A stretch of DNA of 64,000 nt from Candidatus Poribacteria bacterium (lineage in GTDB: Bacteria; Poribacteria; WGA-4E; WGA-3G), in contig OZ244048.1 of the NCBI GenBank assembly GCA_965215265.1, positions 1,312,001 through 1,376,000 on the forward strand. The letters are read 5' to 3'. This document shows, piece by piece, positions 34,423-61,727 of the stretch (within the stretch, counting starts at the first letter, position 1; each line of letters opens with the position of its first letter). The notes beneath the pieces were generated by a model. It had not been told where the DNA came from and made no database searches. It worked only from the letters and a program-made list of their open reading frames with translations. A program made the translations under genes and the position numbers.

Positions 34423-35301
34423 ATGGCGACTGATAACACAACAACCGAACACAATTTTCTTGATCCTGTCTTCAAAGAAGTTTTGACAGCTAACTTCGGG
34501 CAACTCGCCATCCCTATCCAAACACAAGTGGAGGTGAGCCGGCTCCCACGCACCATCGATGCGCTGCTCGTCTTGGAAACCGCTCAACAGCGCGAGAGAG
34601 TTCAGACGCAAACCGCTTTCAACTATTTCCGCCGCTACAATCAGATTGAATTCAAAGGCAAAGCCGATGCTCTCACACGAGACGGATACCACCTCATTCG
34701 TGGGCGCAGCCACCTCTACCTGGCCGAGCAGAAACTCTCGGCAGCTGACATGACGGTGACAATCGTCTCCGCGCGTCAACCCAGAAGCGTGTTGAACCGC
34801 TGCCCATCTGATGTGAGGTGGGACTCCGTAGGTATCGGGCATTATCAAAGCACGGACTTATTGCCTGTGAACCTATTTGTGTGTAATGAATTGGAACTGG
34901 TGGCGAAAAATTACCCTCTGCTGCTCTTTGCCTCGTCCAAACGGAAGTTTTACCAGTTTGTCGAGCAGCTCATCGGCGAGGATAATCTGGCTTACCTCTC
35001 CTATGCGGCACGCGTAGCGCCAGAAATCACAATGGAGGTCTTCAAAATGGCAAAAAGAGAGAATTTATACGATAAACAGCTCCGGCGGATTATTGATGTC
35101 ATGGGCCCGGACTTGCTCAAAAAAATGACACCCCAAGAAAGGTTTCAAGGCATGACACCGGGAGAGAGGCTTGAGGGCATGACACTTCAAGAACGGCTTG
35201 AGGGCATGACACTTCAAGAACGGCTAGCTGGGCTGAGTTCAGAAGATTTACGCTCCTTAGACCCGGAAACCAAAGCAGAACTCCTGAAGTTGTTAACCTA
35301 A
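34423..35301 (+). CDS. PD-(D/E)XK nuclease-like (Rpn-like) protein with C-terminal 9-aa repeats
   Basis: DPVFKE, RTIDAL...IEFK; clear paralog of 60567-61727. Confidence 0.75.
   Translation: MATDNTTTEHNFLDPVFKEVLTANFGQLAIPIQTQVEVSRLPRTIDALLVLETAQQRERVQTQTAFNYFRRYNQIEFKGKADALTRDGYHLIRGRSHLYLAEQKLSAADMTVTIVSARQPRSVLNRCPSDVRWDSVGIGHYQSTDLLPVNLFVCNELELVAKNYPLLLFASSKRKFYQFVEQLIGEDNLAYLSYAARVAPEITMEVFKMAKRENLYDKQLRRIIDVMGPDLLKKMTPQERFQGMTPGERLEGMTLQERLEGMTLQERLAGLSSEDLRSLDPETKAELLKLLT
35047..35301 (+). CDS. Predicted nested in-frame small protein (84 aa, RpnS-like)
   Basis: GGAGGT at 35034-35039, 7-nt spacer, in-frame ATG. Confidence 0.55.
   Translation: MAKRENLYDKQLRRIIDVMGPDLLKKMTPQERFQGMTPGERLEGMTLQERLEGMTLQERLAGLSSEDLRSLDPETKAELLKLLT
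35125..35232 (+). repeat. 4 x 27-bp coding tandem repeat (MTxxERxxG)
   Basis: ATGACAC...GGC units. Confidence 0.9.
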
Positions 35302-35479
35302 TTAGACGAAACCGCCCAGCAAAAATAGATTGCCCTTCTTACTCACCTCTCCTACTTTTTGTAGAAGGCTGATAAGAAAAGGGCTTGGAAATTTGACTCA
35401 GGGCACCGCGTTATCAAGTGCACACTCGCTGCCGCTGCTTTCGTAACGTTTTTAAAATAGGCAATCAGGCAGCAGGCAT

Positions 35480-36096
35480 AATTTACCGGTTCCCCATGGG
35501 CGTTTTCTGCCGTCCCAATACGCAGCACGGGCCCTAGCCAATACGCAGCACGGGCCCGAGACGGATAAAATCCTGATTCCTGGCCGGTGAGGTCTTCGAC
35601 ACGGAAGGGCATTGAGCTAGGGGTGGAGGTCCCAGAGCAGCACGGTGCCGTCCCGACTCCAACTTGTGAGAGCGCTGCCATCTGGGCTGAACGCTACGCT
35701 CCTGACATCATCCGTATGCTCTATGAGGGTTCGGACGGGTTCGCCTATGTTGACATCCTAGAGACGAACGGTTTTGTCCGAACTAGCACTAGCGAGCGTG
35801 CTACCATCTGGGCTGAACGCTACGCTCCTGACATCATCCGTATGCGCTGTGAGTAGGTCGTGCGGCTCACCGCTCTCCGCATCATACAGCCAAATACCGA
35901 TACTACTTGCCACTGCAAGCTGCGACCCATCCGGCGGATACTGCACTTCATTTATCTCACCTTTACCGAGACGCGCAATCGCACCCTCCGGTAAACCCAA
36001 CTGCGTCTCCGCCGGATACTGACGCGACACAACCGGTAGAAAAACACTTGACAAGGTAACACTTAAAAAACAGAATAACGTTAAGCACTTTTTCAT
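35480..36096 (-). pseudogene. Collapsed WD40-repeat secreted protein pseudogene with a CTD remnant
   Basis: AAGGAG RBS and ATG 36096; LPEGAIARLGKG; two WD repeats (42 bp identical at 35678 and 35804); TAG at a Trp position (35758); RAAYW/DGR remnant with a 20-bp duplication (35515 and 35538). Confidence 0.85.
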
Positions 36097-36195
36097 CTTA
36101 CTCCTTCCATTGACTGTTTTTTGCCTGCATGCCGCAAGCTGCTTTCTTTCCAGTTTACCACTTGCCTTATGCTCCGTTAATAGCTCTTTTGCCAT

Positions 36196-36273
36196 AAGGA
36201 AATACTCCTTTGGGCGTGACTGACAAGGTTTCTAGCACAGATACGCCACTATCGTCCCTACCAGCAACTCACC
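36196..36273. repeat. ~80-bp dispersed repeat, copy 1 (copy 2 at 43161-43241)
   Basis: Shared core GTGACTGACAAGGTTTCTAG[CG]ACAGATACGCC...CTACCAGC..AACTCACC. Confidence 0.85.
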
Positions 36274-36308
36274 CGAAAAAATAGGGGTAGGGGAGAATAG
36301 GTTTTGGC

Positions 36309-36337
36309 TTGACAAATTTCGACTGATATGATACACT
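36309..36337 (+). promoter_or_regulatory. sigma70-type promoter of the cupin gene
   Basis: TTGACA-N17-TACACT with extended -10 TG. Confidence 0.65.
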
Positions 36338-36366
36338 GGTAAAAAAAAGAGTAAGGTACTATTATT

Positions 36367-36672
36367 ATGGCAAGCACAGTGAGAAATGATATCAAAGGAA
36401 TAGGGCGCTTTATTTTTGAAGCAGGCGCAGATCCACAGCAGCTACATCTCCATATTTCCGAGGTGGAGCCCGGCACGCGCGCACATCCACCGCATCAGCA
36501 CGACGGACAGGAGATTTTCTACGTTTTTTCCGGTCGAGGTGAAGTACTCTTTGGTAAACACACGCACCTGTTGACTGATAACCAGGCCATCCAGGTGGAC
36601 TGTCGTGTGCTGCACGGCATCCGGAATGTTGGCCAAACACCACTCCGGTACGCTGTCATTATCGCACGATGA
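36367..36672 (+). CDS. Cupin domain protein
   Basis: PG...HPPHQH..QEIFYVFSGRG...HGIRN. Confidence 0.9.
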   Translation: MASTVRNDIKGIGRFIFEAGADPQQLHLHISEVEPGTRAHPPHQHDGQEIFYVFSGRGEVLFGKHTHLLTDNQAIQVDCRVLHGIRNVGQTPLRYAVIIAR

Positions 36673-36696
36673 ATATACCGATATAAGGGAGACTGT

Positions 36697-37131
36697 CTAT
36701 TCCGTCTGATTGTTTTGAAGCTCTGTCCACAATTTGTATAGACCATTTATGCCACCTGCGATGAGAATAATCCCTGCGGCTGCTACAGCACGCCGGATCC
36801 ATAGCGGTTGTAAGTACTCCGGGAGACCCACCGAAATCCAATTCGGTTGCAGAAACGGAGAAAGGGCGATATTCAGATAAAGCGCCCCATAGGCGATATA
36901 ACTTAAGTCGCTCGCTAGCTCCTGTTTGTTACCAGTCACCGGCAGCCTAAATACGTTAATCAGATAGTCACCCGCGAAAATCAACGTCAAGCCTATCAGT
37001 AGAAAAGCACACAACGTCCATAGAGAATACGTGCCACGTCTCAGTGTCACTGATAGCACAATGCTCAGACCTCCCAACGCAACACTAACCAGCCCTTGTA
37101 TAATTTGAAAACTCCTATTCTCTGATACCAT
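36697..37131 (-). CDS. Hypothetical membrane protein
   Basis: Four TM helices; AGGAGG RBS before ATG 37131. Confidence 0.65.
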   Translation of the reverse strand: MVSENRSFQIIQGLVSVALGGLSIVLSVTLRRGTYSLWTLCAFLLIGLTLIFAGDYLINVFRLPVTGNKQELASDLSYIAYGALYLNIALSPFLQPNWISVGLPEYLQPLWIRRAVAAAGIILIAGGINGLYKLWTELQNNQTE

Positions 37132-37144
37132 TTTCCTCCTTCGC

Positions 37145-38125
37145 TTACTCAAATCGAATCCGCGGGTCCACTAAAGTGTAACTTATGTCTGTTAGCAGCA
37201 AGCCCACAATATACAGTAACGCCCCCAAATATACCATGCTCCGAACGATTGCGAAATCTTGTGCTTGAATCGCTTCTATCGTAAAACTTCCAAGTCCCGG
37301 AATCGCGAAAAATGCCTCCATCACCAGGCTCCCTACAAACAGAAACGGAATCGCTAACACAACATTGGTCAATATCGGTATCATGGCGTTTTTGAGCGCA
37401 TGCTTGAACAGCACAACCCCCTCGCTCATCCCTTTCGCACGTGCGGTCCGAACATAGTCCTGATTCACTTCCTCTAGAAATATAGTTCGATAAAAACGGA
37501 TACCGCCCCCTATACCGCTGATGATGCCGATAATTACCGGAAGAATCACGAATTTCAGCAGATGCACCCCCGAATCATACCCGGAGATGGGGAACAGACG
37601 CAACATCTTACCAAACAACCATTGACCTCCGATTATGTAGAATAACTGCGAGATAGACATCACGATCACCGCGGCGATTGTCCCCCAGAAATCAACGTAG
37701 GTGGCACGGTAGTACGCCACGATCATTGAGACGGTAATATTCACGCATAAGCCAATCACGAACGTAGGAAGCGCTATTGTGAGGCTCGGCCACATACGTT
37801 GCAAAATTTGAGAAGTTATGTCGACGTTGTTGGTATCTGAAGTACCGAAATCAAATAGAAAGAGTTTTGCCGATTTCTGAAAAAAAAGCGTCTCTGTGAA
37901 TTTGGCGACACCCGAGGCCCCCGGATTAATGAACAGCGGGAGATGGTAACCGTTTTGCCGCTTCCAATTCTCAACATCTTCTTGTGTGATATTCTTTTCG
38001 CCCAGCATCGTCCGTGCCATGCTATCCGGCGAATTGACGATGAAGAACAGCAAAAACACAATCAGGTTCACGCCGATTAAAATCGGAATCGCGTACAGAG
38101 TTCGCCGGATAATGTAGGTTAGCAT
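37145..38125 (-). CDS. Peptide/nickel ABC transporter permease (OppB/DppB family)
   Basis: MLTYIIRR, DYVRTARAKG, HALKNAMIP, DPRIR. Confidence 0.95.
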   Translation of the reverse strand: MLTYIIRRTLYAIPILIGVNLIVFLLFFIVNSPDSMARTMLGEKNITQEDVENWKRQNGYHLPLFINPGASGVAKFTETLFFQKSAKLFLFDFGTSDTNNVDITSQILQRMWPSLTIALPTFVIGLCVNITVSMIVAYYRATYVDFWGTIAAVIVMSISQLFYIIGGQWLFGKMLRLFPISGYDSGVHLLKFVILPVIIGIISGIGGGIRFYRTIFLEEVNQDYVRTARAKGMSEGVVLFKHALKNAMIPILTNVVLAIPFLFVGSLVMEAFFAIPGLGSFTIEAIQAQDFAIVRSMVYLGALLYIVGLLLTDISYTLVDPRIRFE

Positions 38126-38470
38126 GAAATCTGTTCCTCTGCCAAATCTTATAATGCTGTGATTTTTCTATGAGCACCGAGAAAAATTATAGCATAAGTT
38201 ATGCTATTACGTCAAATTGGCAGGTCGGATTTGAGAATATAGCGTAGAGGTAGTTTTTAGGTATCGCGAGCCCGAAAGCTTGCCGCTGCATGAAATACAA
38301 ACGCATACGAATCTAATTCCTAGTGAGAACCGCATAGGTTGGAGCCGCTGTAATTCATCAAAATGGAGCCACGGCATCTCCGTGCTGCACATTCGGCTCC
38401 ATAGAGAACCCCCAATATTTCCCGGGCAATTGCAGATGCCGAAGTGCGCAGGGGCAGGTGCATGTCTCTT

Positions 38471-40678
38471 TTAGCCTTTTTCATGCTCGCGCCTCCACAT
38501 AACAATCGCAGCGGGAATTGTCACAACGACGAAAAAACCGACAAAAACCCAGATCGGCCAGAAAATCGGCTTGTTCCATTCTAAACGGCTTTCCGCACGC
38601 AGACTTGCATCAACCCGAATATATTTGAGATGGTTCGCACCGATCGCGCTCGGTTTACTATTCTTCACCCACTGATGCGACAGCCCAAAGTTAATCGGAT
38701 GATACGTAAATACCCAAGGTGCATCTTGTTGCACGATCTGTTTCATTTGACGAATGATGTCCAGACGCTCACCGGAATTCTCCATGTTTTTCATCTGTTC
38801 AAACAGTCTATTGTATGCCCGGTTGTCGTAGTTGGCGGCGTTTTCACCGCCGTGTTTCGCTTTGCTGTTTGGGCCGTAGAGGAGGAACAGGAAATTTTCG
38901 GCATCCGGGTAATCCGCGTGCCAGCCCCACGAAATTATCTGGAAATTTGCGTTCTGCACCTTGTCCCGGAATCGGTTGTAGTCTGTCGTCCGGTTCTCCA
39001 TGGTGAGCCCCAACTTCTCAAATCTGCTCCGCATCCACGCTAATATCGGAGTCGCACCTGCCGAGGTCCAAGCGTTATCAAAATGGAGGATTAGCGGATT
39101 TCCGTTCTTATCGACTCCGTCACGGTAACCTGCCTCAGCGAGCAGTTCTCGAGCTTCCTCGATCGATTTGCGCTGAGGGGTGCCGGTTTTCGGATTCCAA
39201 TTATAGACGTACGGGTTCATCCCCTGCTCACCTGCTTCATGCCCGAAAATGCCAGGCGGAATCGGACTCTGCGAACTCAGTCCACGCCCATTCAGAAAAA
39301 TGTCTATGTATTCTTCATAATCTAATGCAATCGAGATGGCTTGACGCAGCTTCTGTTTCTCTACCGTGTAACCGCCCACTGTTTCGTCTTGCATGTTGAA
39401 GCCGAGATAGTAAATAGTTGGGCTCACGCTGGTGCGTAGCACGATATTCTTCGCTTGTAAGAATTCGCTTGCACGCGGGTCGCCGGTATCATCAAGCGTA
39501 ATTGCCTTATCAAACGTATCCGATGAGATGCCGGAACTATCGTAGTAACCTTGCAAGAATTTATTCCACCGCGGTATGTACTCTTTTTCCAGTTTGTAAA
39601 CCACTTTCGGAATAAACGGAATAATTTCCCAGGCATCGGCTAAGAGCCCTGCTTCCCTATCGCCCGGTGCACCGTTTCCAGGGTAACGTTCAACCCGAAA
39701 ATTCTCATTTTTCACAAGGGTTATCTCTTTATACGGCACGAGATTTTCAATACGATACGGGCCGGTACCCACAGGAAACCGATCTATTGTGATATTCCGT
39801 TCTTTGAGCACCGGTTGACTGTAGAACTCGATTGCTTCTCGCGGCATCGGTGAGAAGAAGGGCATCGCTAACCAATAAGCGAACTGCGGGTACTTTGTTT
39901 GCAGGATAATCCGGTAGGTATACCTATCCACGAGCGCAACGCCCGCAAAAACTGCGTCTTCTACGGAATGCGAGGCGGGTTCGGCATCGCTCAGCACATC
40001 TGAGTACGTTTTCATGCCCAAGATATACTCTTCCAAGGTGCTCCGTATCGGACAGGCGACGCGTGGATGCGCTAGTCGTTGAAGTTGGTACACATAGTCC
40101 GCCGCTACAAGCTCCCGCGTACCTGTGACAGGAAAATCGTTGATTTCTCTGAAACCATCGCCTTTTTTCACGTTCCGGTAAAGCCTTTCTCCGTTTTTAT
40201 CCTTAGCGAAACATGGATGCGGCTGGTACAGAATGCCGGGGCGGATGCGTACCTCATAAACTGCACGTTCTACCTGCTCAGATGACGCATCTTGTGGTAA
40301 TGCCCGGCCGTTGGCATCAAAATAACGCGGCTCTGGCACTTTTTCTGCTGTAAGCGGGATGAGTTCATACGGTCTTTTAAGGTAGTGGTATTGTAGCGGT
40401 GGTTCGTAAATTTGCTCAATGAAACGGTACTCATCTGAACTATAGGAGACCGCCGGATCGAAGTGCTTCGGCTCTTCACTAAACGTACTATAGTAGATTT
40501 CTTGGTTGTGTTCAGATTTGGGATACGGATTATTCGGCACCTCGCATCCAATAAAAAACGGGAGAACCGCTAGCAAAAATAAAGCTCGCAACGGTTTGGC
40601 CAGCAACACCTTAGACTTGGTGTCGCCACTCTTGCATAACCGAATGCGAAAATAAAAAAAATCTCTAAAAGAGCACAT
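38471..40678 (-). CDS. Peptide/nickel ABC substrate-binding protein (family 5); start uncertain
   Basis: FDPA, PVGTGPY, KLRQAISIALD, WHADYPDAENFL; lipobox-like FIGC; C-terminal TM helix. Confidence 0.9.
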   Translation of the reverse strand: MCSFRDFFYFRIRLCKSGDTKSKVLLAKPLRALFLLAVLPFFIGCEVPNNPYPKSEHNQEIYYSTFSEEPKHFDPAVSYSSDEYRFIEQIYEPPLQYHYLKRPYELIPLTAEKVPEPRYFDANGRALPQDASSEQVERAVYEVRIRPGILYQPHPCFAKDKNGERLYRNVKKGDGFREINDFPVTGTRELVAADYVYQLQRLAHPRVACPIRSTLEEYILGMKTYSDVLSDAEPASHSVEDAVFAGVALVDRYTYRIILQTKYPQFAYWLAMPFFSPMPREAIEFYSQPVLKERNITIDRFPVGTGPYRIENLVPYKEITLVKNENFRVERYPGNGAPGDREAGLLADAWEIIPFIPKVVYKLEKEYIPRWNKFLQGYYDSSGISSDTFDKAITLDDTGDPRASEFLQAKNIVLRTSVSPTIYYLGFNMQDETVGGYTVEKQKLRQAISIALDYEEYIDIFLNGRGLSSQSPIPPGIFGHEAGEQGMNPYVYNWNPKTGTPQRKSIEEARELLAEAGYRDGVDKNGNPLILHFDNAWTSAGATPILAWMRSRFEKLGLTMENRTTDYNRFRDKVQNANFQIISWGWHADYPDAENFLFLLYGPNSKAKHGGENAANYDNRAYNRLFEQMKNMENSGERLDIIRQMKQIVQQDAPWVFTYHPINFGLSHQWVKNSKPSAIGANHLKYIRVDASLRAESRLEWNKPIFWPIWVFVGFFVVVTIPAAIVMWRREHEKG

Positions 40679-40691
40679 TTACCCAGCCCTC

Positions 40692-41768
40692 TTAAAATGC
40701 GTGGAGTATAGTTAAAGAGATTAAAGGACCGAATTTAAACGCATCGCTTTCTTCGTACGTGCCGTCTAAAAGTGCCTCGCTATCGTCATAAAGCGTTTCT
40801 TGCGTCAACGGCAACATGAACGTAGCCGATAACGACATATTAGAAGGCACTGCTACAGATGCCCCTAAGGATGCCATGCTGAAACGGAGCCCGGTATTAA
40901 TGTCTTGTTCGCCTGCCCAATAGGCGTAAGATTGATAAAACCCCTGATAACTCGCCTGAACCGACACACGCTCAAAGAGGTGATAATTCAAGCCCGCAGT
41001 GTAGGTGAGCCCGCGAGAGCCGCGATAGGTTTTGCTGTTTTCATAGAACGGCAGCTTCCCGCGCAGTGAAGCACTCACGGATAGGCCGCCGTAGAGCGGA
41101 ATTCCATAATGCACCTCAGCAATCGGGTTAAAGGTACCCGTGCCGAATTGGATGTGCAGATGCTCAAGCCCATTATCACCGAGCATCCACGGGTCTTCTT
41201 CCGTTTTTCCGAGCGGCACCGTCGTACCGAGGCGTGTCAATAACAGGTCGTCACTTTTAAAGATGCCTTGGAACTTATGTCCTAGCAGCATATCCATATC
41301 CGTTAAACCTGTATAGGTCTCATTTCTATGGTGAATATCCCTATTGCGTTCAATCGCTTGCAAGTCTGCCGACGTGACCGGCTCAATTTCCTCAACCGTT
41401 GCGCTTTGTTCCTTAAGTTCATACGGGATATTTGCTTCCAGGGTCCACCGTGTGTTAAGGTTGTATTTCAAACCGACATTAACACGGAAGATATTTAAAG
41501 TCACGTGGTGCCTATGCAACGGTACATCGATAACACTTCCATCCGAAGCGAGCCCTTTTGTCTCAAGATGTCCGCCCTCGGCGTCGAACCAACGCATCAT
41601 GCTGAAAGATGCCTGGAATCGCTTCGCTTCTTCTGAAGTCAAACTGACTTCACCTATCCCGCCACGTGGGATCGCGGGATTACTTCAGGCACCTCAGCTA
41701 TCCTGGGCGAATCCGATCAGGAGCGTCATCAATTGCATTATCAGCATTGCCAACACGATTTTTTGCAT
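40692..41768 (-). CDS. Outer-membrane beta-barrel transporter-like protein; candidate selenoprotein (U25-G-A-U28)
   Basis: GGAG RBS, ATG 41768 and signal peptide MQKIVLAMLIMQLMTLLIGFA are in frame with ORF 40692-41642 across two TGA codons. QFGTG motif, His clusters, C-terminal Phe. Confidence 0.75.
41656..41680 (-). promoter_or_regulatory. Candidate SECIS-like hairpin
   Basis: ATCCCGC-GATCCCACGTG-GCGGGAT begins 4 nt after the second TGA. Confidence 0.45.
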
Positions 41769-41804
41769 GTTTTTCTCCGTAAGTGTTTTTTGGTGCACAG
41801 TTAT

Positions 41805-42755
41805 TCATAGCGGTGAATCTTCACGCTGTAGATTTAGCCATTCCATTTCCGAATCGGTGAGGTGCAGTGCTAATGCATCGACGGAAGAACGCATCTCGTC
41901 CAAGTCTGCCGGCCCAATGATCGGGAAGATCGGGAACGGCAGCTGTACGACGTACGCAAGTGAAACCTGAATAGCGGATGAGTTGTATTTTTTCGCCAGT
42001 TTAGTGGCGCGGGCGAGCCTCTCAAAATTATCTGTGTTGTAATACACACGCACCATATCCCGGTTATCTCGTTTCTCTGGTGTCCACGCACCGCCGAAAA
42101 AACCTCTCGCTTGCGAAGACCACGGCATCAATGGAAATTGGTTTTCCTGATGCCAACTCCGTCCTGCTTCATCAACGCATACGCAACCGCCCCACATCGG
42201 CTCCATCGGGACAGCGAGACTAATGTTATTGCTACAAGAGACAAAACCGTGCAACCCGTTGGCAGACGCGTAGCTGTTGGCGGCGGTAATCCGTTCTGGA
42301 TGCCAATTGGAGGCCGATATCGCACGAATCCGGCCCGCACTCATTTCATGATTCAGATAGTCGATAATCGTGCTAACCGGTATGACCGGGTCATCGCGAT
42401 GCAGCATATAGAGATCTATATACGAGGTACGTAGCCGGATGAGGCTTTCGTCCAAGTCGCGTTTTAGCTCTTCCGGTGACAATCTCGGACGAGGAACTCT
42501 GCCGTTTGGATGCCCGCCTTTATCTATGAGGAAAACGGCATCGCGGTTCTGTCGTTGTTGCATCCACAAACCGATTAACATTTCACTGCTGCCCCCACCG
42601 TAACCGTGTGCCGTGTCAAGCGCGTTCCCACCCGCATCACAGAACGCGTCCAGCAGGCGAGTACTATGTTCATATTGCACTGGCGACAGCATCATCGTCC
42701 CCAGAATTAACTGTGAAATCTCTTTGCTAACCCCAGGAATTTTTATCTGATTCAT
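41805..42755 (-). CDS. Aldo/keto reductase
   Basis: LILGT, DTAHGYG, SE, KGG, YIDLYMLHRDD, GRIRAISASNW. Confidence 0.93.
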   Translation of the reverse strand: MNQIKIPGVSKEISQLILGTMMLSPVQYEHSTRLLDAFCDAGGNALDTAHGYGGGSSEMLIGLWMQQRQNRDAVFLIDKGGHPNGRVPRPRLSPEELKRDLDESLIRLRTSYIDLYMLHRDDPVIPVSTIIDYLNHEMSAGRIRAISASNWHPERITAANSYASANGLHGFVSCSNNISLAVPMEPMWGGCVCVDEAGRSWHQENQFPLMPWSSQARGFFGGAWTPEKRDNRDMVRVYYNTDNFERLARATKLAKKYNSSAIQVSLAYVVQLPFPIFPIIGPADLDEMRSSVDALALHLTDSEMEWLNLQREDSPL

Positions 42756-43160
42756 TGATTCTCCTAATTCTCACCAAATCTGTTTCCTCATATTATAGCA
42801 TACTTTATCTATAAAATGGAAAGAGAAACAGCGGCATTTTAAAGTATATAACGTTGTATCTTATCTGAATCTCGCAAAATATATCAAGCATTCTAAAAAT
42901 AAAACTAAATACGCCCAATAAATCCGCTAACTCACTTACCCCAATTTTCTAGGGAAGTGTTGTGTGATGAGGTATTTCCTTGAAACTGTGTGGTGTGAGT
43001 TATCAGAATCCGGATTTGCAGGATTTTCAGGAGAAGCGGTTTTTCGTGCAGTCGGCGAGTTCCCAGAAAAGTTTATGCATGGCTCCGCCTGATCAAGCAC
43101 CCCGACGCGATGTGTGACACGTGGGCGTTCTGGTCTGCTTTTTAGCAGGGCTCTTACCTC

Positions 43161-43241
43161 AAGGAGATACCGCTTTGGCGGGTGACTGACAAGGTTTCTA
43201 GGACAGATACGCCGCCATCGCCTCTACCAGCGCAACTCACC
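43161..43241. repeat. ~80-bp dispersed repeat, copy 2
   Basis: Same orientation and core as 36196-36273. Confidence 0.85.
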
Positions 43242-43482
43242 AAGTGAGAAGATAAATCAGGCAGAGAAATCGGTATCGCCTCAAACAGAAAGAGATGTAA
43301 TAGCATTCGGCACACGGCCTACTCACCATCACACCTCTGCTTTTATCTTTCGCATATCTCACACTGCATAATACGCAAACCCCTATGCCCCTTGTCAGGC
43401 GGTATAATAACGGTAGGGTTCCTACCTGACACTACCAACCCGAGCGGACCGGGGTCTGCCATGGTGTTCCGTGCGTGCCGTC

Positions 43483-43812
43483 CTATAGTTCTAACGCCTG
43501 TAGGAATGCTTCAAAACTGTCGGCTTTGACGGCTGTCAGCAGCAGCTGCTCGAGGTGTTCGAGGTTAGAAAGGGTTTCGAGTTGCTGCGTGGCAGTGTGT
43601 ATGTCACAATGAGGGAATCGCGCATTGAGGACGGCGGTTATATTTTTGATAGCATTCTGGCACGCCCCTCGCTCAATCCCTTCTTCTCTCCCTTGTTCTC
43701 TCCCTTGTTCTCTCCCTTGTTCTATGCCTCGTTCTATGCCTTGTTCTATGCCTCGTTCTATGCCTTGTGCTATGCCTCGTTCGAAGAGGAATTCGGCCAT
43801 TGTCTCTGCCAT
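43483..43812 (-). CDS. Predicted nested in-frame small protein (109 aa, RpnS-like)
   Basis: GGAGGT at 43825-43820, 7-nt spacer, in-frame ATG (MAETMAE). Confidence 0.65.
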   Translation of the reverse strand: MAETMAEFLFERGIAQGIERGIEQGIERGIEQGREQGREQGREEGIERGACQNAIKNITAVLNARFPHCDIHTATQQLETLSNLEHLEQLLLTAVKADSFEAFLQALEL

Positions 43813-44631
43813 CGGTGCTACCTCCATGTCACTCGTATGCCGGTCTATCAACTCTATCAACTCTTCTTGTTCTTCCTTTGAACGCTGATGCTGAATCAGC
43901 AACACCAGATACATTATCGCTTCCCTACGCTGCCCGGAATCGACTGCATCAAGCGTCTCCAGCTGCGTCAAAGTCTCTCGTAACGCGCGGCTTATAGACG
44001 CTTTGTCCGAATCTTTTTGTTGAAGCACTCTCATCAGCCACCCGAATGGATGCGCCGCCTCTGTCAGCGTCGCCTTGTCTGTGCCTTTCAGATTCAGAAA
44101 CAGGATGTCAAATCTCGGAACGAATCTAGAGAGCGCCGCGGGCAAATTCATCATCGCCTCAAGTGTCAGTGGCTTCTCCCACCGCCGCTCCCCTGTGTAA
44201 AACACCACGGGCAAAATCGGCGGCAATACACGCTCACTTCTCGGCACCTTCTCTGCCGCCCACCGCCGCCGCTCTGCGTCCCAAATTAGCATCATGTAGA
44301 AAAGCACACGAAACCCCATCGTCGCATCTACCGTCGATTGATGTTCAATCAGCAGATAGATGAGCAGCTCTGCCGCACCCTCATCACCATCACTTTTGAA
44401 GGGCACCCGATATACAATGTCTGCCTCTTGTTCTCGGAGAGTGGCGGGCAGCAGACTCCTATTCATTGGAACCAGCTGCTCAAAGTCAATCAACGCGGCG
44501 AGTTCTGCCGCAACGAGTTCTAACAAGCCCCGGACGTTTTCCTTGTTTTCTAATAAGCGGCGTATACTCCGATCGGAAAAGTTCGCAACAGACATCTCGG
44601 ACAAAAAGTCGTGGATGTCCTTCTTCTGCAT
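43483..44631 (-). CDS. Rpn/YhgA-like recombination-promoting nuclease (putative transposase family)
   Basis: EADIVY, IYLLIEHQSTVD..MGFR, LPPILPVVFYTGERRW, GIEQG/GREEG repeats. Confidence 0.9.
   Translation of the reverse strand: MQKKDIHDFLSEMSVANFSDRSIRRLLENKENVRGLLELVAAELAALIDFEQLVPMNRSLLPATLREQEADIVYRVPFKSDGDEGAAELLIYLLIEHQSTVDATMGFRVLFYMMLIWDAERRRWAAEKVPRSERVLPPILPVVFYTGERRWEKPLTLEAMMNLPAALSRFVPRFDILFLNLKGTDKATLTEAAHPFGWLMRVLQQKDSDKASISRALRETLTQLETLDAVDSGQRREAIMYLVLLIQHQRSKEEQEELIELIDRHTSDMEVAPMAETMAEFLFERGIAQGIERGIEQGIERGIEQGREQGREQGREEGIERGACQNAIKNITAVLNARFPHCDIHTATQQLETLSNLEHLEQLLLTAVKADSFEAFLQALEL
43669..43776 (-). repeat. 9 x 12-bp coding tandem repeat (GIEQ/GREQ)
   Basis: Visible CCTTGTTCTAT/CTCT periodicity. 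Confidence 0.9.
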
Positions 44632-44692
44632 ATTAGACTCCTAAAACGTGGCAGTTGTCAAGTGCTTCCCTTCTTAAAACGGCTACGTCTTT

Positions 44693-44721
44693 ATAATAAC
44701 ACATCAGGGAATCATTGTCAA
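44693..44721 (-). promoter_or_regulatory. sigma70-type promoter of the Rpn gene
   Basis: TTGACA-N17-TATTAT with extended -10 TG. Confidence 0.65.
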
Positions 44722-44873
44722 GCAGAGATAAATCCTCACTTACCGCCATTTTTTAAAGAATCTAAAAAGGGCGTAAATGAGAATCCGCTAACCATTGCAG
44801 AAAAACGGATGTCATGCTATAATAGAAAATAGAATTCAACGAGGCATGCTCCTATTACTAACAGAGAGAGGAA

Positions 44874-45962
44874 ATGATAAAAGCGAAACCCGGTATTGAC
44901 ACCATTCAGCCGTACCAAGCAGGTAAACCGATTCAAGAAGTACAGTGCGAATTGGGCATCACCGATATTATCAAACTCGCCTCCAATGAGAATCCGCTTG
45001 GACCCTCACCGCTGGCGATGCAAGCAATCGCCGGCAGTGCCGCACAGGTACATCTCTATCCGGATGGAAACGCCTATTACCTCAAAGCAGCCCTGGCAGA
45101 ACACCTCGGTACCTCCGCAGAACATCTCATTTTGGGCAACGGCTCCAATGACGTGCTGCAGCTAGTCGGCGAGACATATCTCGTACCCGGCGATGAGGTT
45201 ATCTACGCAGCCGGGGCTTTTGTTGTCTATAGCCTGGTAACCACAATTTGTGGGGCAAAGCCTCTCATTATACGCATGCATAATAACACGCACGACTTGG
45301 ATGCCATGGCCGCAGCGATTACGCCCAGAACAAAACTCATCTTTATTGCAAACCCAAATAATCCTACAGGCACTATGGTTACAGCATCCGAGACAACCCG
45401 CTTTATGGAACAGGTGCCGGACCACGTGCTCGTTGTTTTCGACGAGGCGTATTATGAATACGTCACCCGGCATGACTATCCCCAGACGTTTCCTTACGTC
45501 CTAGCCGGACGTAATCTCATCATCACCCGCACCTTCTCCAAAATCTACGGACTCGCCGGGCTACGTATCGGTTATGGCATCGCACCGCCTCATATAGTCG
45601 AAATGCTAAATCGCGTCCGGCAACCCTTCAACTGCAACTCGGTCGGACAAGCAGCCGCGTGCGCTGCACTCAAAGATATCGCACACGTACAAAAAAGCCA
45701 ACAGTGCAACGATGCAGGCAAAAACTTTCTATACCAAGCACTGGACGATATCGGATTGCAATACATCAAAACCTATGGAAACTTTATTATGGTGTTTCTC
45801 ACAACTCCGTCAGGAGCAGACATCGCCGCGACGCTTATGAGAAAGGGGGTTATCGTACGGCCGATGGCAGGCTACGGTTATCCAGACGCTATCCGCGTCA
45901 CCATCGGCACACAGCAGCAGAATGAGCGGTTCATCGCCTGCTTAACTGAGGCCATCGCCTAA
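44874..45962 (+). CDS. hisC: Histidinol-phosphate aminotransferase
   Basis: KLASNENPLGPS, GNGS, ANPNNPTG, DEAY, RTFSKIYGLAGLRIGY. Confidence 0.95.
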   Translation: MIKAKPGIDTIQPYQAGKPIQEVQCELGITDIIKLASNENPLGPSPLAMQAIAGSAAQVHLYPDGNAYYLKAALAEHLGTSAEHLILGNGSNDVLQLVGETYLVPGDEVIYAAGAFVVYSLVTTICGAKPLIIRMHNNTHDLDAMAAAITPRTKLIFIANPNNPTGTMVTASETTRFMEQVPDHVLVVFDEAYYEYVTRHDYPQTFPYVLAGRNLIITRTFSKIYGLAGLRIGYGIAPPHIVEMLNRVRQPFNCNSVGQAAACAALKDIAHVQKSQQCNDAGKNFLYQALDDIGLQYIKTYGNFIMVFLTTPSGADIAATLMRKGVIVRPMAGYGYPDAIRVTIGTQQQNERFIACLTEAIA

Positions 45963-56741: not shown

Positions 56742-57431
56742 GTGAAGCAGGACTTAGGGCGGTGGCACCGCGCCTATATTAAGAACGCGTACCGGGAGTT
56801 GGAACGCGGCACGACGCGAAAACAGATTGATGCGCTCGGTATTAACGCTACCCGGAAAAAGGTTTTGGACGTAGGATGCGGTGCAGGGAACCTCCTCGTC
56901 GCGCTTGCTCTGGATGCACCGAGCCTCTTAGTCGGAGTTGATGTGGATATGACGTTCTTGGAATTCACACCGCCAGTTCACTTGAGGCACAACGGTGAAA
57001 TACCAATACGAAAACTTCGTGCCGGGCTGCCCGCCTTGCCGTTTAAAAACGAAACGTTTGACTTGGTAACCTGCTTCCTCGTTATGCCACATGTTCCGGA
57101 GGACAAAGCCGCTTTAACAGAGCTCGCACGTGTGTTGAAACCCGGAGGCACCCTCGCACTGTCCGGGCATGGATTCGGATTCCCGCTCAGTTATCTTAAA
57201 CGTCTTAAATTAAAACCGTTGATTATGTATCTCGCCACCCTGATTTATAGATGCACAGGAAAAAAGTGGATCCGGAACACGCTTCAGAGTGATAAAAAAG
57301 TGTGCGATATCCTCCGCAGCATCGGCATGAGCCCGGATAGGCAGCTCCGCCCTAAAAAGACGTTCGGGCACGTCACGACCTATTGCATCCGTGCAATGAA
57401 GAACGATACAAGCCCCAGCCCGATGCAGTAA
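56742..57431 (+). CDS. Class I SAM-dependent methyltransferase
   Basis: VLDVGCGAG, LPF..ETFDLV, RVLKPGG. Confidence 0.88.
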   Translation: MKQDLGRWHRAYIKNAYRELERGTTRKQIDALGINATRKKVLDVGCGAGNLLVALALDAPSLLVGVDVDMTFLEFTPPVHLRHNGEIPIRKLRAGLPALPFKNETFDLVTCFLVMPHVPEDKAALTELARVLKPGGTLALSGHGFGFPLSYLKRLKLKPLIMYLATLIYRCTGKKWIRNTLQSDKKVCDILRSIGMSPDRQLRPKKTFGHVTTYCIRAMKNDTSPSPMQ

Positions 57432-58204
57432 TAGGAAAAAACCGAGAATTTGCCGCGGTTTAGCATCGCCAAAAGAATTCGCAAGGCGATGTAACCCACA
57501 ACGAACGAGGCGAGCATCCCACCGCCTATGATGTGGATAGGTATGGCGGTATCCACAACATCGCGCATTTTAAGTACAACAGCACCGAGTATCGCCGGCA
57601 GCGAAAGCAGGAAAGAGTATTCCGCTGCTGTTTTTGCAGGAATGCCGCACAACAGCGCAACCGAAATCGTTGTTCCAGAACGGGAGATGCCGGGCGTAAT
57701 TGCACACCCTTGCGCTACGCCGATCAGCGGCGTATGCCACGCCTTGAGCGGCTGCTCTGTTTGGTCACGCCGCCGCAGACGCGGCAATTGGAGAATGCCA
57801 CCGGTGAGAATTAACATCACGCTCACGAGCTGCACCTCATCGAAAAACGATTCAAGCGTGTCCTTAAATAGCACAGCGATGAGACCTGTTGGAATAGAAC
57901 CGAGCAAGATTAACCAGATAAACTTCAACTCTGAGGAGGTGCTGAGCGTCCGGATCGGATGCCTATAAAGTTGCGGTGTCGCTACCGCAGAGAAGCCGCC
58001 TTTTAAGAGCCGCACGATTGCATACCGATAAACGAGCACAACCGCCGCTAACGTGCCGAGGTGGAGCATCACATCAAAGAAGACAAGCGGCTCGTTCAAG
58101 CCGAGGAATGTCTGTGCTAAAACCAGATGTCCCGAGCTGCTCACTGGCAGAAATTCGGTTAAGCCTTGTAAAACACCGAGCAGAATTGCTTCAAGAAAGG
58201 TCAT
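57380..58204 (-). CDS. uppP: Undecaprenyl-diphosphatase
   Basis: QGLTEFLPVSSSGHL, PGISRSG.T, AAEYSFLL. Confidence 0.96.
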   Translation of the reverse strand: MTFLEAILLGVLQGLTEFLPVSSSGHLVLAQTFLGLNEPLVFFDVMLHLGTLAAVVLVYRYAIVRLLKGGFSAVATPQLYRHPIRTLSTSSELKFIWLILLGSIPTGLIAVLFKDTLESFFDEVQLVSVMLILTGGILQLPRLRRRDQTEQPLKAWHTPLIGVAQGCAITPGISRSGTTISVALLCGIPAKTAAEYSFLLSLPAILGAVVLKMRDVVDTAIPIHIIGGGMLASFVVGYIALRILLAMLNRGKFSVFSYYCIGLGLVSFFIARMQ

Positions 58205-58211
58205 GGGTAGT

Positions 58212-58240
58212 ATGATAACAGTTTTGTGAAATTATGTCAA
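58212..58240 (-). promoter_or_regulatory. sigma70-type promoter of uppP (probably leaderless transcript)
   Basis: TTGACA-N17-TATCAT, 7 nt before the ATG. Confidence 0.65.
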
Positions 58241-58695
58241 TGATTTTAGCAGCGCATTTACCCCACGGAAACTAAGTCACGAATACAGAAAAAGAGTGGA
58301 CATTTCTTTTAGATTGCAGGTATAATTAACTTTACAAAGTGAGTTGCCGAAACCGTTTGAGGCAACATCCGTAAAATGGATTGACATTTTTTGTATTGTA
58401 ACCCTTTTACAACCCATAACGTTTCTATAAGTGTGACGAAGTCGTTTGGAGCCCTGTGTCTAAATTCGTCTGCAAATAGATACAAGGCTCAATTTCAGGA
58501 ATTCGAAAAAAAGAATTGAATTTTCTCAGATTGCGGGTATCATGATAGATATAAGAGAAAAAAGTCGGCTTTTTTTCGCGTTTTGTTTTATGGTATAATA
58601 TAGCTAAAGTGTTTTTTTTTGGGTTCTATAACTTAGTCAGAAGACTATAAAGTTTATTCCGTCACGGGATAAAGAATAACAAGGAGTTAGATAAG

Positions 58696-60351
58696 ATGAA
58701 GAGAAGAATGCACCCCCCCCACCTCCTTCTATATGTTAAGTATTTTATTTGCGTGTTGAGTGGCGGATTTATCTCATCTGTAATTTCGATAGCCGGGATT
58801 GCGATGTTAGCCGCACCGATGGCTACCGTGGAGGCAGCGAAACCGACGTTAGAGTCTGTTGAGATAGAGAGTGAAGGTCCACATACAGGCGATTCGCTCT
58901 ATTCGTACAGCAGGCAAAGGTTAATTAGAGATTGGGAGGATAATACCGATCCCGCGAGTAGAACCGCGGCTCGGGAGGATCTAGTAGCAAACCATACATC
59001 GGGCATTCTGACTGCTCCGGGGTACTCCAACCCCACCATGGGCCAAGAGGTTAAATTTTTCAGTAGTACAGATAAAATCGTTTTTAAGTTGACATTTAAT
59101 ATAGATGTCAAAGTCCAGCACGATGGAAGGTCCGCTCTGCCGGCCCTGGCGCTAGATATGGACGGTGAGAGCGACCTCGTTGGCACTACACTACGTGCCG
59201 TCTATGATCCAGTAAAGACCGGGGCGCGAACCGATGATAAAGTCGTATATTTCACATACACGGTGCAAGACGGTGATGACGTTTTCGGCGATGGCGTTGA
59301 TATAGATCGCGATCCGGATCCCTATTATGACGATGCAAATAATTTCATCATAGATAATGATGCTACCGTCGAGTCCCCCCCCGCGAACACCGGCGATACT
59401 GATAAGTGGAAAACTAGCTCGACTTATACGCGGATATACTTTGACAAGCTTTGGTCGGGCTTTTACGGCCGGGTTTGGCCGCCGCCGAACCCTTCTGATC
59501 ATGACGGTCTTAAGTATCTCATAGATACTATCCGGGCGAATGTGAGGATCCCTGGGCTGATCAAGGCCGGGACTCATGATGAGATGGGTTTCCGCACCGA
59601 CTATGTGGATTTTTCAACGACAGCACCCGATGCGGCTGTTACCGAACGTGACACTCAGACAGAGTCCTTTGATGTGGAATTTCTATTCTACAATTATGGG
59701 ATTGGAACTGACGATGATGGTGTGATTGCAGATACCACGCGAGGCTTCGAGGCGACGGACATCACGCTCAAGGTAGATGACACCGCGGTGACACTGGGCA
59801 CCACCGCGGCTGATTGGCAGGTTTCAGCCCCGATGTTAATCGGCTTAGACCATCGGGATCCCGGTTTTAATAATCCGAGTATAGATGATAGCGGGAGGGT
59901 GAAACATAGTTCCGCCTTCAAAGTCTACAGAGCGACTATCACGCCGCCGTCGGCTTTTGACGGAAATGTGGAAATAACGGTGCCAGAGAATGCCACCATG
60001 GACATAGCGGGCAACCTGAGCCTGGCCTCGAATACGCTGACGGTGCCTGTAAATACAAGCGTCGAGGTGACCATTCCGGATGAGACGCTCCGTGCGAAAA
60101 TCAAGGAGACACTCAACATCGCCGCGGGGACGGCTGTGACCTCGGTACATATGCTAGACTTGACAAGCCTAGATTTAGGTGGCTCAGACGTTAGCAAGCT
60201 GACTGGACTTGAATACGCCACCAACTTGGAAGAGTTGGATCTCGGGGGTACGCAAGTAGAGGATGTCTCGCCGCTGGCAAACCTCACGAACTTGAGAGTG
60301 CTGGATCTCAGTGATACGCAAGTATCGGATATCTCGCCGCTGGCAAATTAA
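58696..60351 (+). CDS. Secreted protein with Ig-like segments and internalin-type LRRs; C-terminally truncated
   Basis: AAGGAG RBS, N-terminal hydrophobic segment, FTYTVQDGD, A.DIAGN, IPDETLRAKI cap, LTGLEYATNL and DVSPLANLTNL repeats; ends mid-repeat. Confidence 0.8.
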   Translation: MKRRMHPPHLLLYVKYFICVLSGGFISSVISIAGIAMLAAPMATVEAAKPTLESVEIESEGPHTGDSLYSYSRQRLIRDWEDNTDPASRTAAREDLVANHTSGILTAPGYSNPTMGQEVKFFSSTDKIVFKLTFNIDVKVQHDGRSALPALALDMDGESDLVGTTLRAVYDPVKTGARTDDKVVYFTYTVQDGDDVFGDGVDIDRDPDPYYDDANNFIIDNDATVESPPANTGDTDKWKTSSTYTRIYFDKLWSGFYGRVWPPPNPSDHDGLKYLIDTIRANVRIPGLIKAGTHDEMGFRTDYVDFSTTAPDAAVTERDTQTESFDVEFLFYNYGIGTDDDGVIADTTRGFEATDITLKVDDTAVTLGTTAADWQVSAPMLIGLDHRDPGFNNPSIDDSGRVKHSSAFKVYRATITPPSAFDGNVEITVPENATMDIAGNLSLASNTLTVPVNTSVEVTIPDETLRAKIKETLNIAAGTAVTSVHMLDLTSLDLGGSDVSKLTGLEYATNLEELDLGGTQVEDVSPLANLTNLRVLDLSDTQVSDISPLAN

Positions 60352-60406
60352 CAACTTAACTCGGAAGAATAAACTCAGTGAAATCTAAGTTAACCTAGCC
60401 TAACCT

Positions 60407-60451
60407 AAACCAGGGGCAGCCACCTTCATATGGCTGCCCCTGGTTTTTTTT
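60407..60451 (+). terminator. Strong intrinsic terminator
   Basis: AAACCAGGGGCAGCCA-N8-TGGCTGCCCCTGGTTT followed by a T-run. Confidence 0.9.
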
Positions 60452-60503
60452 GTTTTCAGAGAAGCACCGAGGCCGCCTTGAGAAGCGACATCTGGAGACG
60501 GCC

Positions 60504-60533
60504 TTGACAAAATAATAGGGAGGCTGCTATACT
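60504..60533 (+). promoter_or_regulatory. sigma70-type promoter
   Basis: TTGACA-N18-TATACT with extended -10 TG. Confidence 0.6.
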
Positions 60534-60566
60534 TTATTATGAGAAGTGGAGCGTCTAAGCAGATAG

Positions 60567-61727
60567 ATGAGGCAAACTACGGCACCAGAGACATCCAAAG
60601 AAACACAAAGCAAACGGCAGTTTTGGGACCCTTTCTTCAAAGAGTTCCTGGCCCTGCTGTTCTCTGGGCTGGGTGCCTCTATCCAGACAGAGATAGAAGT
60701 CAACCGGTTACCGCAGCGTATAGATGCACTCGCTCTCCTCGAAAGTGCCGCAGCCCGGGCGAGAGTGCGGGCCAATCCGCTGCTCTCTTACTTACGCACG
60801 TATAATCTGTTCGAGTTCAAAGGGCAGAACGACCTGTTGAATGGTTCGGAGTATCACCGGATTTCTATGCGTGCGTGCGGCTATCTCGCAGCGCATAAGG
60901 TGCCAGACACGGAAGTTACCTTGACGATAGTGTCGTCTCGGAAGCCGCGGGCACTGCTTACCCACCCGCCTTTTGGGGTATCCTGGGTGCAGCTCGCCCC
61001 TGGACATTATCGGCACCGGGAAGATCTGCCGGTGCATCTATTGGTTTGTAATGAAGTGGAGGTGGTTGAGCCGAATTATTGGTTGCTGCTGTTTGCGTCG
61101 TCGCGGAAACAGTTTCGTGCGTTCCTGCGGCGGGTGATAACGGAAGAGAATACGTTATATTTTGACTCCGCGTTGTATTTGCAGCCGGAAGTCACGGAGG
61201 AGGTTTGTGAAATGGAAGGACATCAAGATTTATTTCAGAGTCGTCTTCGCGAAGTTGCGACGACTTTGGGTCCGAAGTTGCTGTCTGCACTGACATCGGA
61301 GGAGCGTGCGGACATGCTGGCCCGCTTGAGTCCTCAAGACCGGGCGGATCTGCTCGCACGGCTGCCCGCTGAAGACCGGGCGGACATGTTAGCAAGGTTA
61401 TCTACGGCAGACCGTGCGGATATGTTGGCGAGTTTACCGGTTGCGGAGCGTGCGGATATGTTGGCGAGTTTACCGGTTGCGGAGCGTGCGGATATGTTGA
61501 CGAGTTTACCGGTTGCGGAGCGTGCGGATATGTTGGCGAGTTTACCGGTTGCGGAGCGTGCGGACATGTTGGCACGGCTGGGTCCCGAAGCGCGTGCGGA
61601 CATGTTGGCACGGCTGGCGGCGATGCCTGACGCTGAATGGGTAGAGGTGCTCCGGGGCTTGTCGATGGAGATGCGTGTGAAACTGGCGCGGCAGTTGTTG
61701 GCTGCAGAGAATCGAACGGAGGAGTAG
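60567..61727 (+). CDS. PD-(D/E)XK nuclease-like (Rpn-like) protein with C-terminal 12-aa repeats
   Basis: DPFFKE, QRIDAL...FEFKG; paralog of 34423-35301. Confidence 0.78.
   Translation: MRQTTAPETSKETQSKRQFWDPFFKEFLALLFSGLGASIQTEIEVNRLPQRIDALALLESAAARARVRANPLLSYLRTYNLFEFKGQNDLLNGSEYHRISMRACGYLAAHKVPDTEVTLTIVSSRKPRALLTHPPFGVSWVQLAPGHYRHREDLPVHLLVCNEVEVVEPNYWLLLFASSRKQFRAFLRRVITEENTLYFDSALYLQPEVTEEVCEMEGHQDLFQSRLREVATTLGPKLLSALTSEERADMLARLSPQDRADLLARLPAEDRADMLARLSTADRADMLASLPVAERADMLASLPVAERADMLTSLPVAERADMLASLPVAERADMLARLGPEARADMLARLAAMPDAEWVEVLRGLSMEMRVKLARQLLAAENRTEE
61212..61727 (+). CDS. Predicted nested in-frame protein (171 aa, RpnS-like)
   Basis: GGAGGAGGT ending at 61204, 7-nt spacer, in-frame ATG. 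Confidence 0.55.
   Translation: MEGHQDLFQSRLREVATTLGPKLLSALTSEERADMLARLSPQDRADLLARLPAEDRADMLARLSTADRADMLASLPVAERADMLASLPVAERADMLTSLPVAERADMLASLPVAERADMLARLGPEARADMLARLAAMPDAEWVEVLRGLSMEMRVKLARQLLAAENRTEE
61302..61625 (+). repeat. 9 x 36-bp coding tandem repeat (ERADMLASLPVA)
   Basis: Central four units are nearly identical at the DNA level. Confidence 0.92.

Follow-up and report, generated by a model that had tools for sequence, protein, structure and literature searches.

Three genes within a 64-kb stretch of the genome of an uncultured sponge symbiont, a Candidatus Poribacteria bacterium (GenBank assembly GCA_965215265.1, contig OZ244048.1, positions 1,312,001 to 1,376,000; referred to as the window), each carry a strong ribosome-binding signal and an in-frame ATG inside the coding region, and they are probably intragenic toxin-antitoxin pairs of the RpnL/RpnS type, a design that would here extend to an unnamed nuclease family. 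In the known systems, reported for RpnA-E and RpnP2 of E. coli and for C. difficile, the small protein RpnS is made from an internal start and blocks the full-length RpnL (Zhong et al. 2023, PNAS, PMC10400941), and the antitoxin function of the Rpn proteins has been shown experimentally in two species (PMC10400941). The middle gene of the three (gene 2, protein P0002) is a canonical Rpn, and the two outer genes (gene 1, P0001, and gene 3, P0003) belong to a second family, referred to as family A. All of them lie in a genome of 4.83 Mb that is assembled as a single contig with 48% GC.

The motif GGAGGTNNNNNNNATG (GGAGGT-N7-ATG) has exactly three matches in the window, at 35034-35049 (+), 43825-43810 (-), and 61199-61214 (+), as against a mean of 0.34 and a maximum of 2 in 100 dinucleotide-preserving shuffles, none of which reached three. 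This count confirmed the original prediction, which had placed ATGs at 35047 (+), 43812 (-), and 61212 (+), each with GGAGGT 7 nt before it, and the sizes that it had given for the internal products (84, 109, and 171 amino acids, aa) were reproduced by coordinate arithmetic. All three ATGs are in frame with the long open reading frame (ORF) and fall where the conserved N-domain gives way to the tail with its repeats; the location proposed for them, at the boundary of a nuclease body and a repeat-rich tail, was borne out in each gene by the AlphaFold2 (AF2) model of gene 1 and the positions of the tandem repeats. The further claim that the internal ribosome-binding sites are better than those at the annotated starts was sustained for genes 1 and 3, the former having a weak Shine-Dalgarno (SD) sequence at its annotated start (gaaaggtgtaATG) and the latter none at proper spacing, but not for gene 2, whose annotated start has a fair one (AGGAG-N6-ATG). 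P0001 and P0003 share 40% identity over 296 aa (E 4e-62) in an alignment that runs through the internal start, and because the sites of genes 1 and 3 are homologous, the matches in the window amount to two independent cases rather than three.

The 3′ end of the 16S rRNA of this genome reads ...GATCACCTCCTTTCTA / ...CACCUCCUUUCUA, and GGAGG is enriched 4-10 nt ahead of the first ATGs of long ORFs. The organism initiates translation by SD sequences, and the spacing of 8 nt from GGAGG lies inside its preferred range. Genome-wide, the exact GGAGGT-N7-ATG configuration occurs 87 times, with 43 occurrences in family A, Rpn, and a third group of genes referred to as group C, 15 at likely ordinary gene starts, five at other internal positions, and 24 in short frames. 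When the spacing is relaxed, 86 in-frame internal GGAGG-N4..10-ATG sites are found in long ORFs of the genome, 53 of them within these same families.

Comparison with other genomes revealed that the SD and the AUG are conserved at the nucleotide level, synonymous sites included. For family A, 22 loci from other genomes were fetched, two of which were broken before the site and 20 of which were assessed; for Rpn, 28 loci from 40 relatives were tried and 26 assessed. The boundary Met of family A (Met209 in P0001) is invariant in 23/23 aligned homologues and at 20/20 loci of other genomes, where the SD reads GGAGG in 13 cases, GGAGA in five, GAGG in one, and GGATG in one. The Rpn loci keep the Met in 24/26 and GGAGG in 20/26, most of the others retaining AGGAG, GGAGA, or GAGG. 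Had the signal been wrongly called, the Glu-Val codons would be expected to vary synonymously in homologues, as was pointed out in the original prediction; they are instead frozen, Glu(-4) being encoded by GAG in 18/18 family A and 25/25 Rpn homologues from other genomes. GAG is the minor Glu codon (196/568 in family A ORFs, 358/995 in Rpn ORFs, and 36.6% genome-wide), and Glu(-4) is among only 3 of 126 conserved-residue columns in family A, and 3 of 121 in Rpn, that use a single codon. The neighbouring position behaves likewise: Lys(-5) of family A is AAG in 15/16, versus AAA in 9/10 for Lys(-1), and codon -5 of Rpn spans nine residue types with a third base G in 24/26, ranking second of 202 variable columns. 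Between SD and ATG, the sequence varies across genomes. This ranking of codons within the genes points to a constraint acting on the RNA and not on the protein.

Within the genome under study, the same arrangement recurs in a set of 59 genes, comprising 26 family A ORFs, 24 Rpn (family B) ORFs, and nine intact group C genes. The internal Met is kept in 59/59 (50/50 for families A and B) and GGAGG in 54/59 (45/50 for families A and B), with GGAGG-N8-ATG in 24/24 Rpn paralogs and GGAGG-N5-ATG in 9/9 intact group C genes. Among the paralogs GGAGG is encoded via different peptides, namely MEV, EEV, LEV, EEEK, PEG, TEV, and TED. The proposed extension of the design to a divergent family holds by sequence and proved wider than initially noted, with 26 family A copies and, in addition, stand-alone tail genes. 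There are 28 Rpn matches in this genome and none in a genome of the same genus (G001; 4.0 Mb, 95% complete), with matches in 23/41 genomes overall; family A N-domain matches number 27 here, with one each in 3/40 relatives and none in the same-genus genome. Across the genomes searched, the expansion of Rpn and family A has the appearance of a recent, lineage-specific event.

The group C genes (~311-339 aa) lie outside the window, for example at ~958.4-959.5 kb (-), 1601.4-1602.3 kb (+), and 3828.9-3829.9 kb (+) (loci L053-L055). Their N-domain, which carries an E-x-Q motif (HIELQ), has no match to Pfam by hmmscan at E <= 0.01, and their tails are of the Rpn type with GIEQ repeats; in an hhalign comparison (probability 98.9, E 1.8e-17) they align to the tails of Rpn, beginning at the internal Met. 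By language-model features the group resembles DUF2887 (PF11103; 0.96, 181-190 of 256 features), a cyanobacterial 'Rpn family', a likeness that serves as a lead only and has no bearing on the three genes of the window.

Tails of family A also occur as genes of their own. In this genome, five ORFs that encode a tail alone (loci L056-L058) immediately follow family A genes: one at 3425484-3425735 (-) after a copy of subfamily A2 at 3.426 Mb, two at 1762437-1762721 (-) and 1762082-1762366 (-) after a copy of subfamily A3 at 1.763 Mb, and one each at 4102514-4102888 (+) and 4104346-4104855 (+) after two A3 copies at 4.10 Mb. Their homology to the long genes starts ~8 codons before the conserved Met, the upstream bases are kept, and no earlier in-frame ATG is present. 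Two such proteins were recorded by gene callers with the conserved Met as their start, P0392 of this genome (91 aa) and P0393 of another contig (89 aa). At three loci of other Poribacteria (L025, L034, and L052), a second tail copy with GGAGGTA-N6-ATGGC sits immediately downstream of the Rpn gene. These stand-alone genes show that the Met with its SD serves as a gene start. A comparable situation has been described for some rpn loci that have a second, separate RpnS gene of the ypaA type (PMC10400941). The likeness to such stand-alone RpnS proteins (YpaA, DUF4351, PF14261) lies in the position directly downstream and in the start at the internal Met of the long gene; unlike them, the stand-alone tails of family A lack a DUF4351 match and carry the family A head with 9/12-aa repeats. 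As a separate observation, the locus at 3.4257 Mb contains a partial duplicate, from residue ~152, after the full A2 gene. In contigs X1-X4, position 35312 of the window is joined back to 34876 with 23 other letters between; this joint matches the paralogous locus at 3.4257 Mb and is not a rearrangement of the window locus.

Gene 1 (34423..35301, +) encodes a full-length family A protein of subfamily A2 (P0001, 292 aa), the predicted long (toxin) form, with an N-domain of predicted PD-(D/E)XK fold followed by a helical repeat tail. Upstream of it lies a sigma-70-like promoter match, TTGCAA-17-TATAAT, at 34346..34374 (+; 10/12 positions, consensus match only). Its internal SD, GGAGGT at 35034..35039 (+), is complementary to the 16S 3′ end, is spelled by the codons frozen in homologues, and stands 7 nt before the in-frame ATG of the predicted short (antitoxin-like) product of 84 aa (35047..35301, +), which begins MAKRENLYDKQL at the invariant Met209; tandem repeats of 27 nt (9 aa), 3.7 copies, were located in the tail at 35125..35225 (+) by Tandem Repeats Finder (TRF). 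Gene 3 (60567..61727, +) encodes a full-length protein of subfamily A1 (P0003, 386 aa) and is likewise preceded by a sigma-70-like match, TTGACA-18-TATACT with TG, at 60504..60533 (+; 11/12 positions, consensus match only). Its internal GGAGGT at 61199..61204 (+), within GGAGGAGGT, precedes the in-frame ATG of a predicted short product of 171 aa (61212..61727, +) that begins MEGHQDLFQSRL, and TRF detected 36-nt (12-aa) repeats of the ERADMLASLPVA type at 61308..61609 (+), with 36-nt tandem repeats also reported for the narrower span 61413-61573. The motif RxIDAL...EFKG, by which the two proteins had been grouped at the outset, is present in the translations of both.

Family A is predicted to be a PD-(D/E)XK-fold nuclease. 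In the AF2 model of P0001 (predicted local distance difference test, pLDDT, 79.5; predicted template modelling score, pTM, 0.71), a nuclease core at residues 13-157 is followed by helices at 161-209, then Met209, and then the tail. The top structural matches of this core are all PD-(D/E)XK nucleases, with Z-scores of 5.8-8.4, led by NucS (Z 8.4, root-mean-square deviation 3.1, 102 residues aligned), AF1548 (8.4), Card1 (7.4), and McrC (7.3), with VC1899, Can2, and FokI as further matches. The modelled strands span residues 32-38, 41-50, 72-78, and 110-116, which puts D46 in the second strand and E76-F-K78 in the third, and D46, E76, and K78 are invariant or nearly so among family A relatives; the model shows the arrangement by which PD-(D/E)XK enzymes are recognised, an alpha-beta-beta-beta-alpha-beta core in which D...(D/E)xK is carried by the second and third strands. 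The N-domains of P0001 and P0003 have no match in Pfam or NCBIfam, nor do those of 23 relatives (0/23) or 32 distant members (0/32), and the relatives carry only the name 'hypothetical protein' in their sources. Out of 1.84 billion cluster representatives, a profile of the family A N-domain collected 1,120 at E <= 0.001; compared by sequence with solved structures, the family A profile gave chance rows only. Foldseek with the P0001 model returned no row at E <= 0.001 and only weak PD-(D/E)XK rows. Language-model features link family A only weakly with PF04754 (0.91; 122 features, in 16% of members). The tail of P0003 matches the Pfam family MgtE_N. Among distant relatives, P0390 was observed to combine a family A N-domain (residues 2-167) with a C-terminal bacterial EndoU nuclease domain (E 8.4e-17) and to have no repeat tail.

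Gene 2 (43483..44631, -) encodes a canonical Rpn (YhgA-like) protein of 382 aa, subfamily B1, the predicted RpnL. As had been proposed from the sequence, it is a genuine member of that family: residues 20-227 of P0002 match PF04754 (Transposase_31) with E 3.4e-28 and 99.1 bits (cut-off 21), and its 4-aa repeats are placed as published. The score against TIGR01784 is 42.8, below the cut-off of 52.1. The gene has the sigma-70-like match TTGACA-17-TATTAT with TG at 44693..44721 (-; 11/12 positions, consensus match only), and its internal SD motif, GGAGGT at 43820..43825 (-), precedes the internal ATG of a predicted RpnS of 109 aa (43483..43812, -), which begins MAETMAEFLFER and continues with ten GxxX repeats; TRF reports them as 12-nt (4-aa) tandem repeats, 8.7 copies, at 43679..43782 (-). 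A search with query residues 1-273 returned relatives from Candidatus Poribacteria that bear the name 'Rpn family recombination-promoting nuclease/putative transposase', several of which carry a PF14261 (DUF4351) match, whereas P0002 itself has none at E <= 0.01. By sequence, P0002 matches no solved structure at E <= 1. The model of its tail consists of one long helix (4-65) and three short helices; Foldseek gave no row at E <= 0.001 for it, and VIA-align matched it to designed helical proteins and SpoT, the best with Z 9.2 over 60 residues, with no Rpn entry among the matches listed. The crystal structure of RpnAS is a dimeric, DUF4351-type helical bundle.

In both families the tails are built from repeats whose number differs between copies. 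The published Rpn repeats begin 8-20 residues after the Met, and a mismatch in repeats abolishes inhibition (PMC10400941). Rpn tails of this genome read MAETMAEFLxER and then GxxX units, 3-11 in number, which begin at residue 13 of the short form in 24/24 copies, so that gene 2 and all 24 Rpn paralogs follow the published pattern of 4-aa repeats in variable number; the lengths of the B1 paralogs, 354-386 aa, increase by 4 aa at a time. Genes 1 and 3 depart from this pattern, with repeats of 9 and 12 aa and a later start. Family A tails open with a conserved head and close with a conserved end, and the run of 12-aa (ERADMLASLPAA) and 9-aa (ERVKGLSPD) units between the two is variable. The three A2 paralogs have tails of 76, 84, and 103 aa that differ in repeat copy number, the 17 A1 paralogs have 17 different tails of 92-238 aa, and across families A and B, 49/50 tails are distinct, differing by repeat number. 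One protein, P0262, joins a family A N-domain to a DUF4351 tail (25.1 bits, cut-off 25), and tails are thus exchanged between N-domain families.

On the most economical reading, gene 2 would be a new member of the known RpnL/RpnS system, and genes 1 and 3 would follow the same design with another nuclease domain and other repeats. Measured against the account of Zhong et al., who define rpn as COG5464 (PMC10400941), the features in common are a PD-(D/E)XK nuclease followed by a helical tail, an SD formed by Lys/Glu codons a few codons before the boundary Met (the published SD/start mutant of E. coli RpnA is K240R+E241D+M244L, PMC10400941), tail repeats that vary in number between copies, stand-alone tail genes downstream, and a multi-copy, patchy distribution with tandem arrays and no insertion sequence (IS) ends. 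Gene 2 moreover shares the Pfam family (PF04754) and the 4-aa repeats, here from residue 13. Genes 1 and 3 differ in having an N-domain that lacks a Pfam or NCBIfam model and shows no hhalign similarity to Rpn, in 9-/12-aa repeats that begin ~27-30 residues after the Met, and in tails resembling MgtE_N-like helical pairs rather than DUF4351. In copy number, the 59 genes of this symbiont exceed the 26 rpn copies quoted for a Bacillus thuringiensis strain (PMC10400941). No report of family A or of a Poribacterial Rpn was found in the literature searched; the supplementary text of Zhong et al. contains neither 'Poribacteria' nor 'DUF2887', and the accompanying Dataset S1 and GitHub tables may include such genes.

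Briefly, the whole ORF would encode the PD-(D/E)XK nuclease, acting as the toxin, and the strong internal SD (GGAGGU, complementary to the 16S 3′ end) 7 nt before the AUG would let ribosomes restart and produce the tail alone as antitoxin. The short form would pair with the tail of its own long form through the shared sequence, keeping the nuclease silent until a trigger arrives, probably phage infection. Differences between paralogs in the number of tandem repeats (units of 4 aa in Rpn and of 9 and 12 aa in family A) could allow ~59 pairs to coexist per cell without cross-inhibition. A wider interpretation is plausible and is put forward tentatively: the intragenic antitoxin may be a transferable module, made up of a tail together with an SD and an AUG, which has become fused to at least two and perhaps three nuclease N-domains that share no recognisable sequence similarity, family A among them, and which has been amplified here to ~59 mutually insulated pairs, with specificity set by the number and order of repeats of 4, 9, or 12 residues. 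If true, such an amplified module would give this uncultured sponge symbiont an innate immune repertoire coded by repeats.

Other explanations of the internal sites have to be set against the toxin-antitoxin interpretation. Conservation of E-V-x-x-M for protein structure only, with the SD bases as a by-product and the three matches arising from shared ancestry and chance, is very improbable. The homology of genes 1 and 3 at the site agrees with it, as does the conservation of Glu and Met, which sit in a helix, but the synonymous positions are frozen on minor codons, GGAGG is reached via at least seven peptide contexts, and the -5 codon varies in residue and not in its third base; the codon-column control largely refutes this explanation. 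Some other signal at the nucleotide level, such as a ribosome pause for domain folding or a recombination or gene-conversion junction, with no separate protein being made, would account well for a site exactly at the domain boundary, for modular tails common to unrelated N-domains, and for the near-identity of the paralogs of this genome around the junction. It is nonetheless improbable, as neither a pause nor recombination needs an invariant in-frame ATG at SD spacing (5-8 nt), the intervening bases vary freely across genomes, the stand-alone tail genes, necessarily translated from the conserved Met, keep the signal, and the same configuration is also seen at at least 15 likely ordinary gene starts.

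A third explanation accepts that the tail-only protein is made and assigns it a role other than that of an antitoxin, either as a required enzyme subunit, like Cas11d from cas10d, or as a dominant-negative regulator of an activity that rearranges DNA or resembles transposition, like Inh of Tn5. Inh is the inhibitory C-terminal isoform of the Tn5 system and acts as a dominant-negative regulator of transposition. Both Cas10d/Cas11d and Tn5 Tnp/Inh resemble the present genes in that an internal in-frame start yields a C-terminal fragment which associates with the long form; they differ in belonging to other enzyme classes and in having no repeat-number code. All the evidence for internal initiation fits a non-antitoxin tail protein equally well, the Cas10d/Cas11d pair is cited as a complementary gene-within-gene precedent by Zhong et al. 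(PMC10400941, introduction), and the multi-copy state, with 59 genes in all and 27 family A matches here versus 0-1 in 40 relatives, is reminiscent of mobile elements. Such a role appears unlikely all the same, in view of the experimentally established antitoxin function of Rpn in two species, of the small shared unit with gradual decay and no terminal inverted repeats, as reported for rpn (PMC10400941), and of the paralog-specific repeat numbers, which fit insulated inhibitor pairs.

Several observations weigh against the toxin-antitoxin interpretation itself. The SD is weakened in part of family A, reading GGAGAT through a Val-to-Ile change in 5/26 copies of this genome and GGAGA at 5/20 loci elsewhere, and it is lost at two loci (L014 and L031); the most distant family A subgroup is devoid of the boundary Met. 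The homologues are related, so that the counts overstate their independence, and the within-gene column control corrects for this only partly. The fold matches of family A are middling (best Z 8.4), and hhalign detected no sequence similarity between family A and the Poribacterial Rpn (probabilities 0.3 and 0.2), because of which the transfer of function to family A is based on architecture and fold. Initiation at the internal AUG, binding of the short form to the long one, toxicity, and phage defence are inferred steps. Finally, the three genes sit among mostly housekeeping genes, with no obvious defence island around them.

The importance of these genes lies in a second nuclease family, absent from Pfam and NCBIfam, in which the RpnL/RpnS architecture is under clear selection at the nucleotide level, and which bears on the question raised in the commentary of Koonin (PMC10400984) of whether internal-start antitoxins are 'the tip of an iceberg'. 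The gene list of this genome probably lacks ~59 short proteins. The signal itself provides a search rule for genes within genes in unculturable genomes, namely an SD and an in-frame Met that are synonymously frozen at a domain boundary, and the expansion within one genome, with 49/50 distinct tails, offers a natural data set on the relation between repeat number and partner specificity.

Aside from the sequence comparisons, a complex prediction of full-length P0001 with residues 209-292 gave a score of 0.60, the best of three controls scoring 0.00, with at least 90% of contacts agreeing between runs and a partner pLDDT of at least 77. The mark for this score is reached by 116/157 solved complexes and 2/215 mismatched pairs, and values at or below 0.60 include 18/157 of the former and both passing mismatches; the support is weak, and the prediction was not used as evidence. 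PADLOC gave no meaningful match for the three proteins. Candidate internal promoters, with 9/12 matches at 34958-34986 and 61134-61161 and none in gene 2, were at the level of shuffled sequence and were set aside. An insertion sequence or transposase with defined ends was likewise rejected, as no terminal inverted repeats were found flanking the three genes and the similarity of the flanks decays gradually, the unit shared between paralogs being the gene with ~60-140 nt upstream and 20-100 nt downstream.

None of the four sequencing runs listed for 34301-44300 is on record as RNA, and no RNA run turned up. Across 34301-45000, contigs X1-X4 of these runs break at the multi-copy genes and list no insertions or deletions, which makes them uninformative on polymorphism of the tails. 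At ~35690-36085, next to gene 1, contig depth jumps several-fold and short contigs break in all four runs; a 145-aa ORF at 35758-36195 (-) has a WD40 repeat, and some other multi-copy element or repeat adjoins gene 1 there. The leucine-rich repeat (LRR) protein gene upstream of gene 3 likely has its terminator at 60407-60446 (+), where a perfect stem of 16 bp with a loop of 8 nt is followed by a T-run, just ahead of the promoter-like site of gene 3. Between genes 2 and 3, the segment 48810-54690 (+) encodes a likely type III restriction-modification pair, a DNA methylase (N6_N4_Mtase, 938 aa) followed by a ResIII helicase/nuclease (1003 aa).

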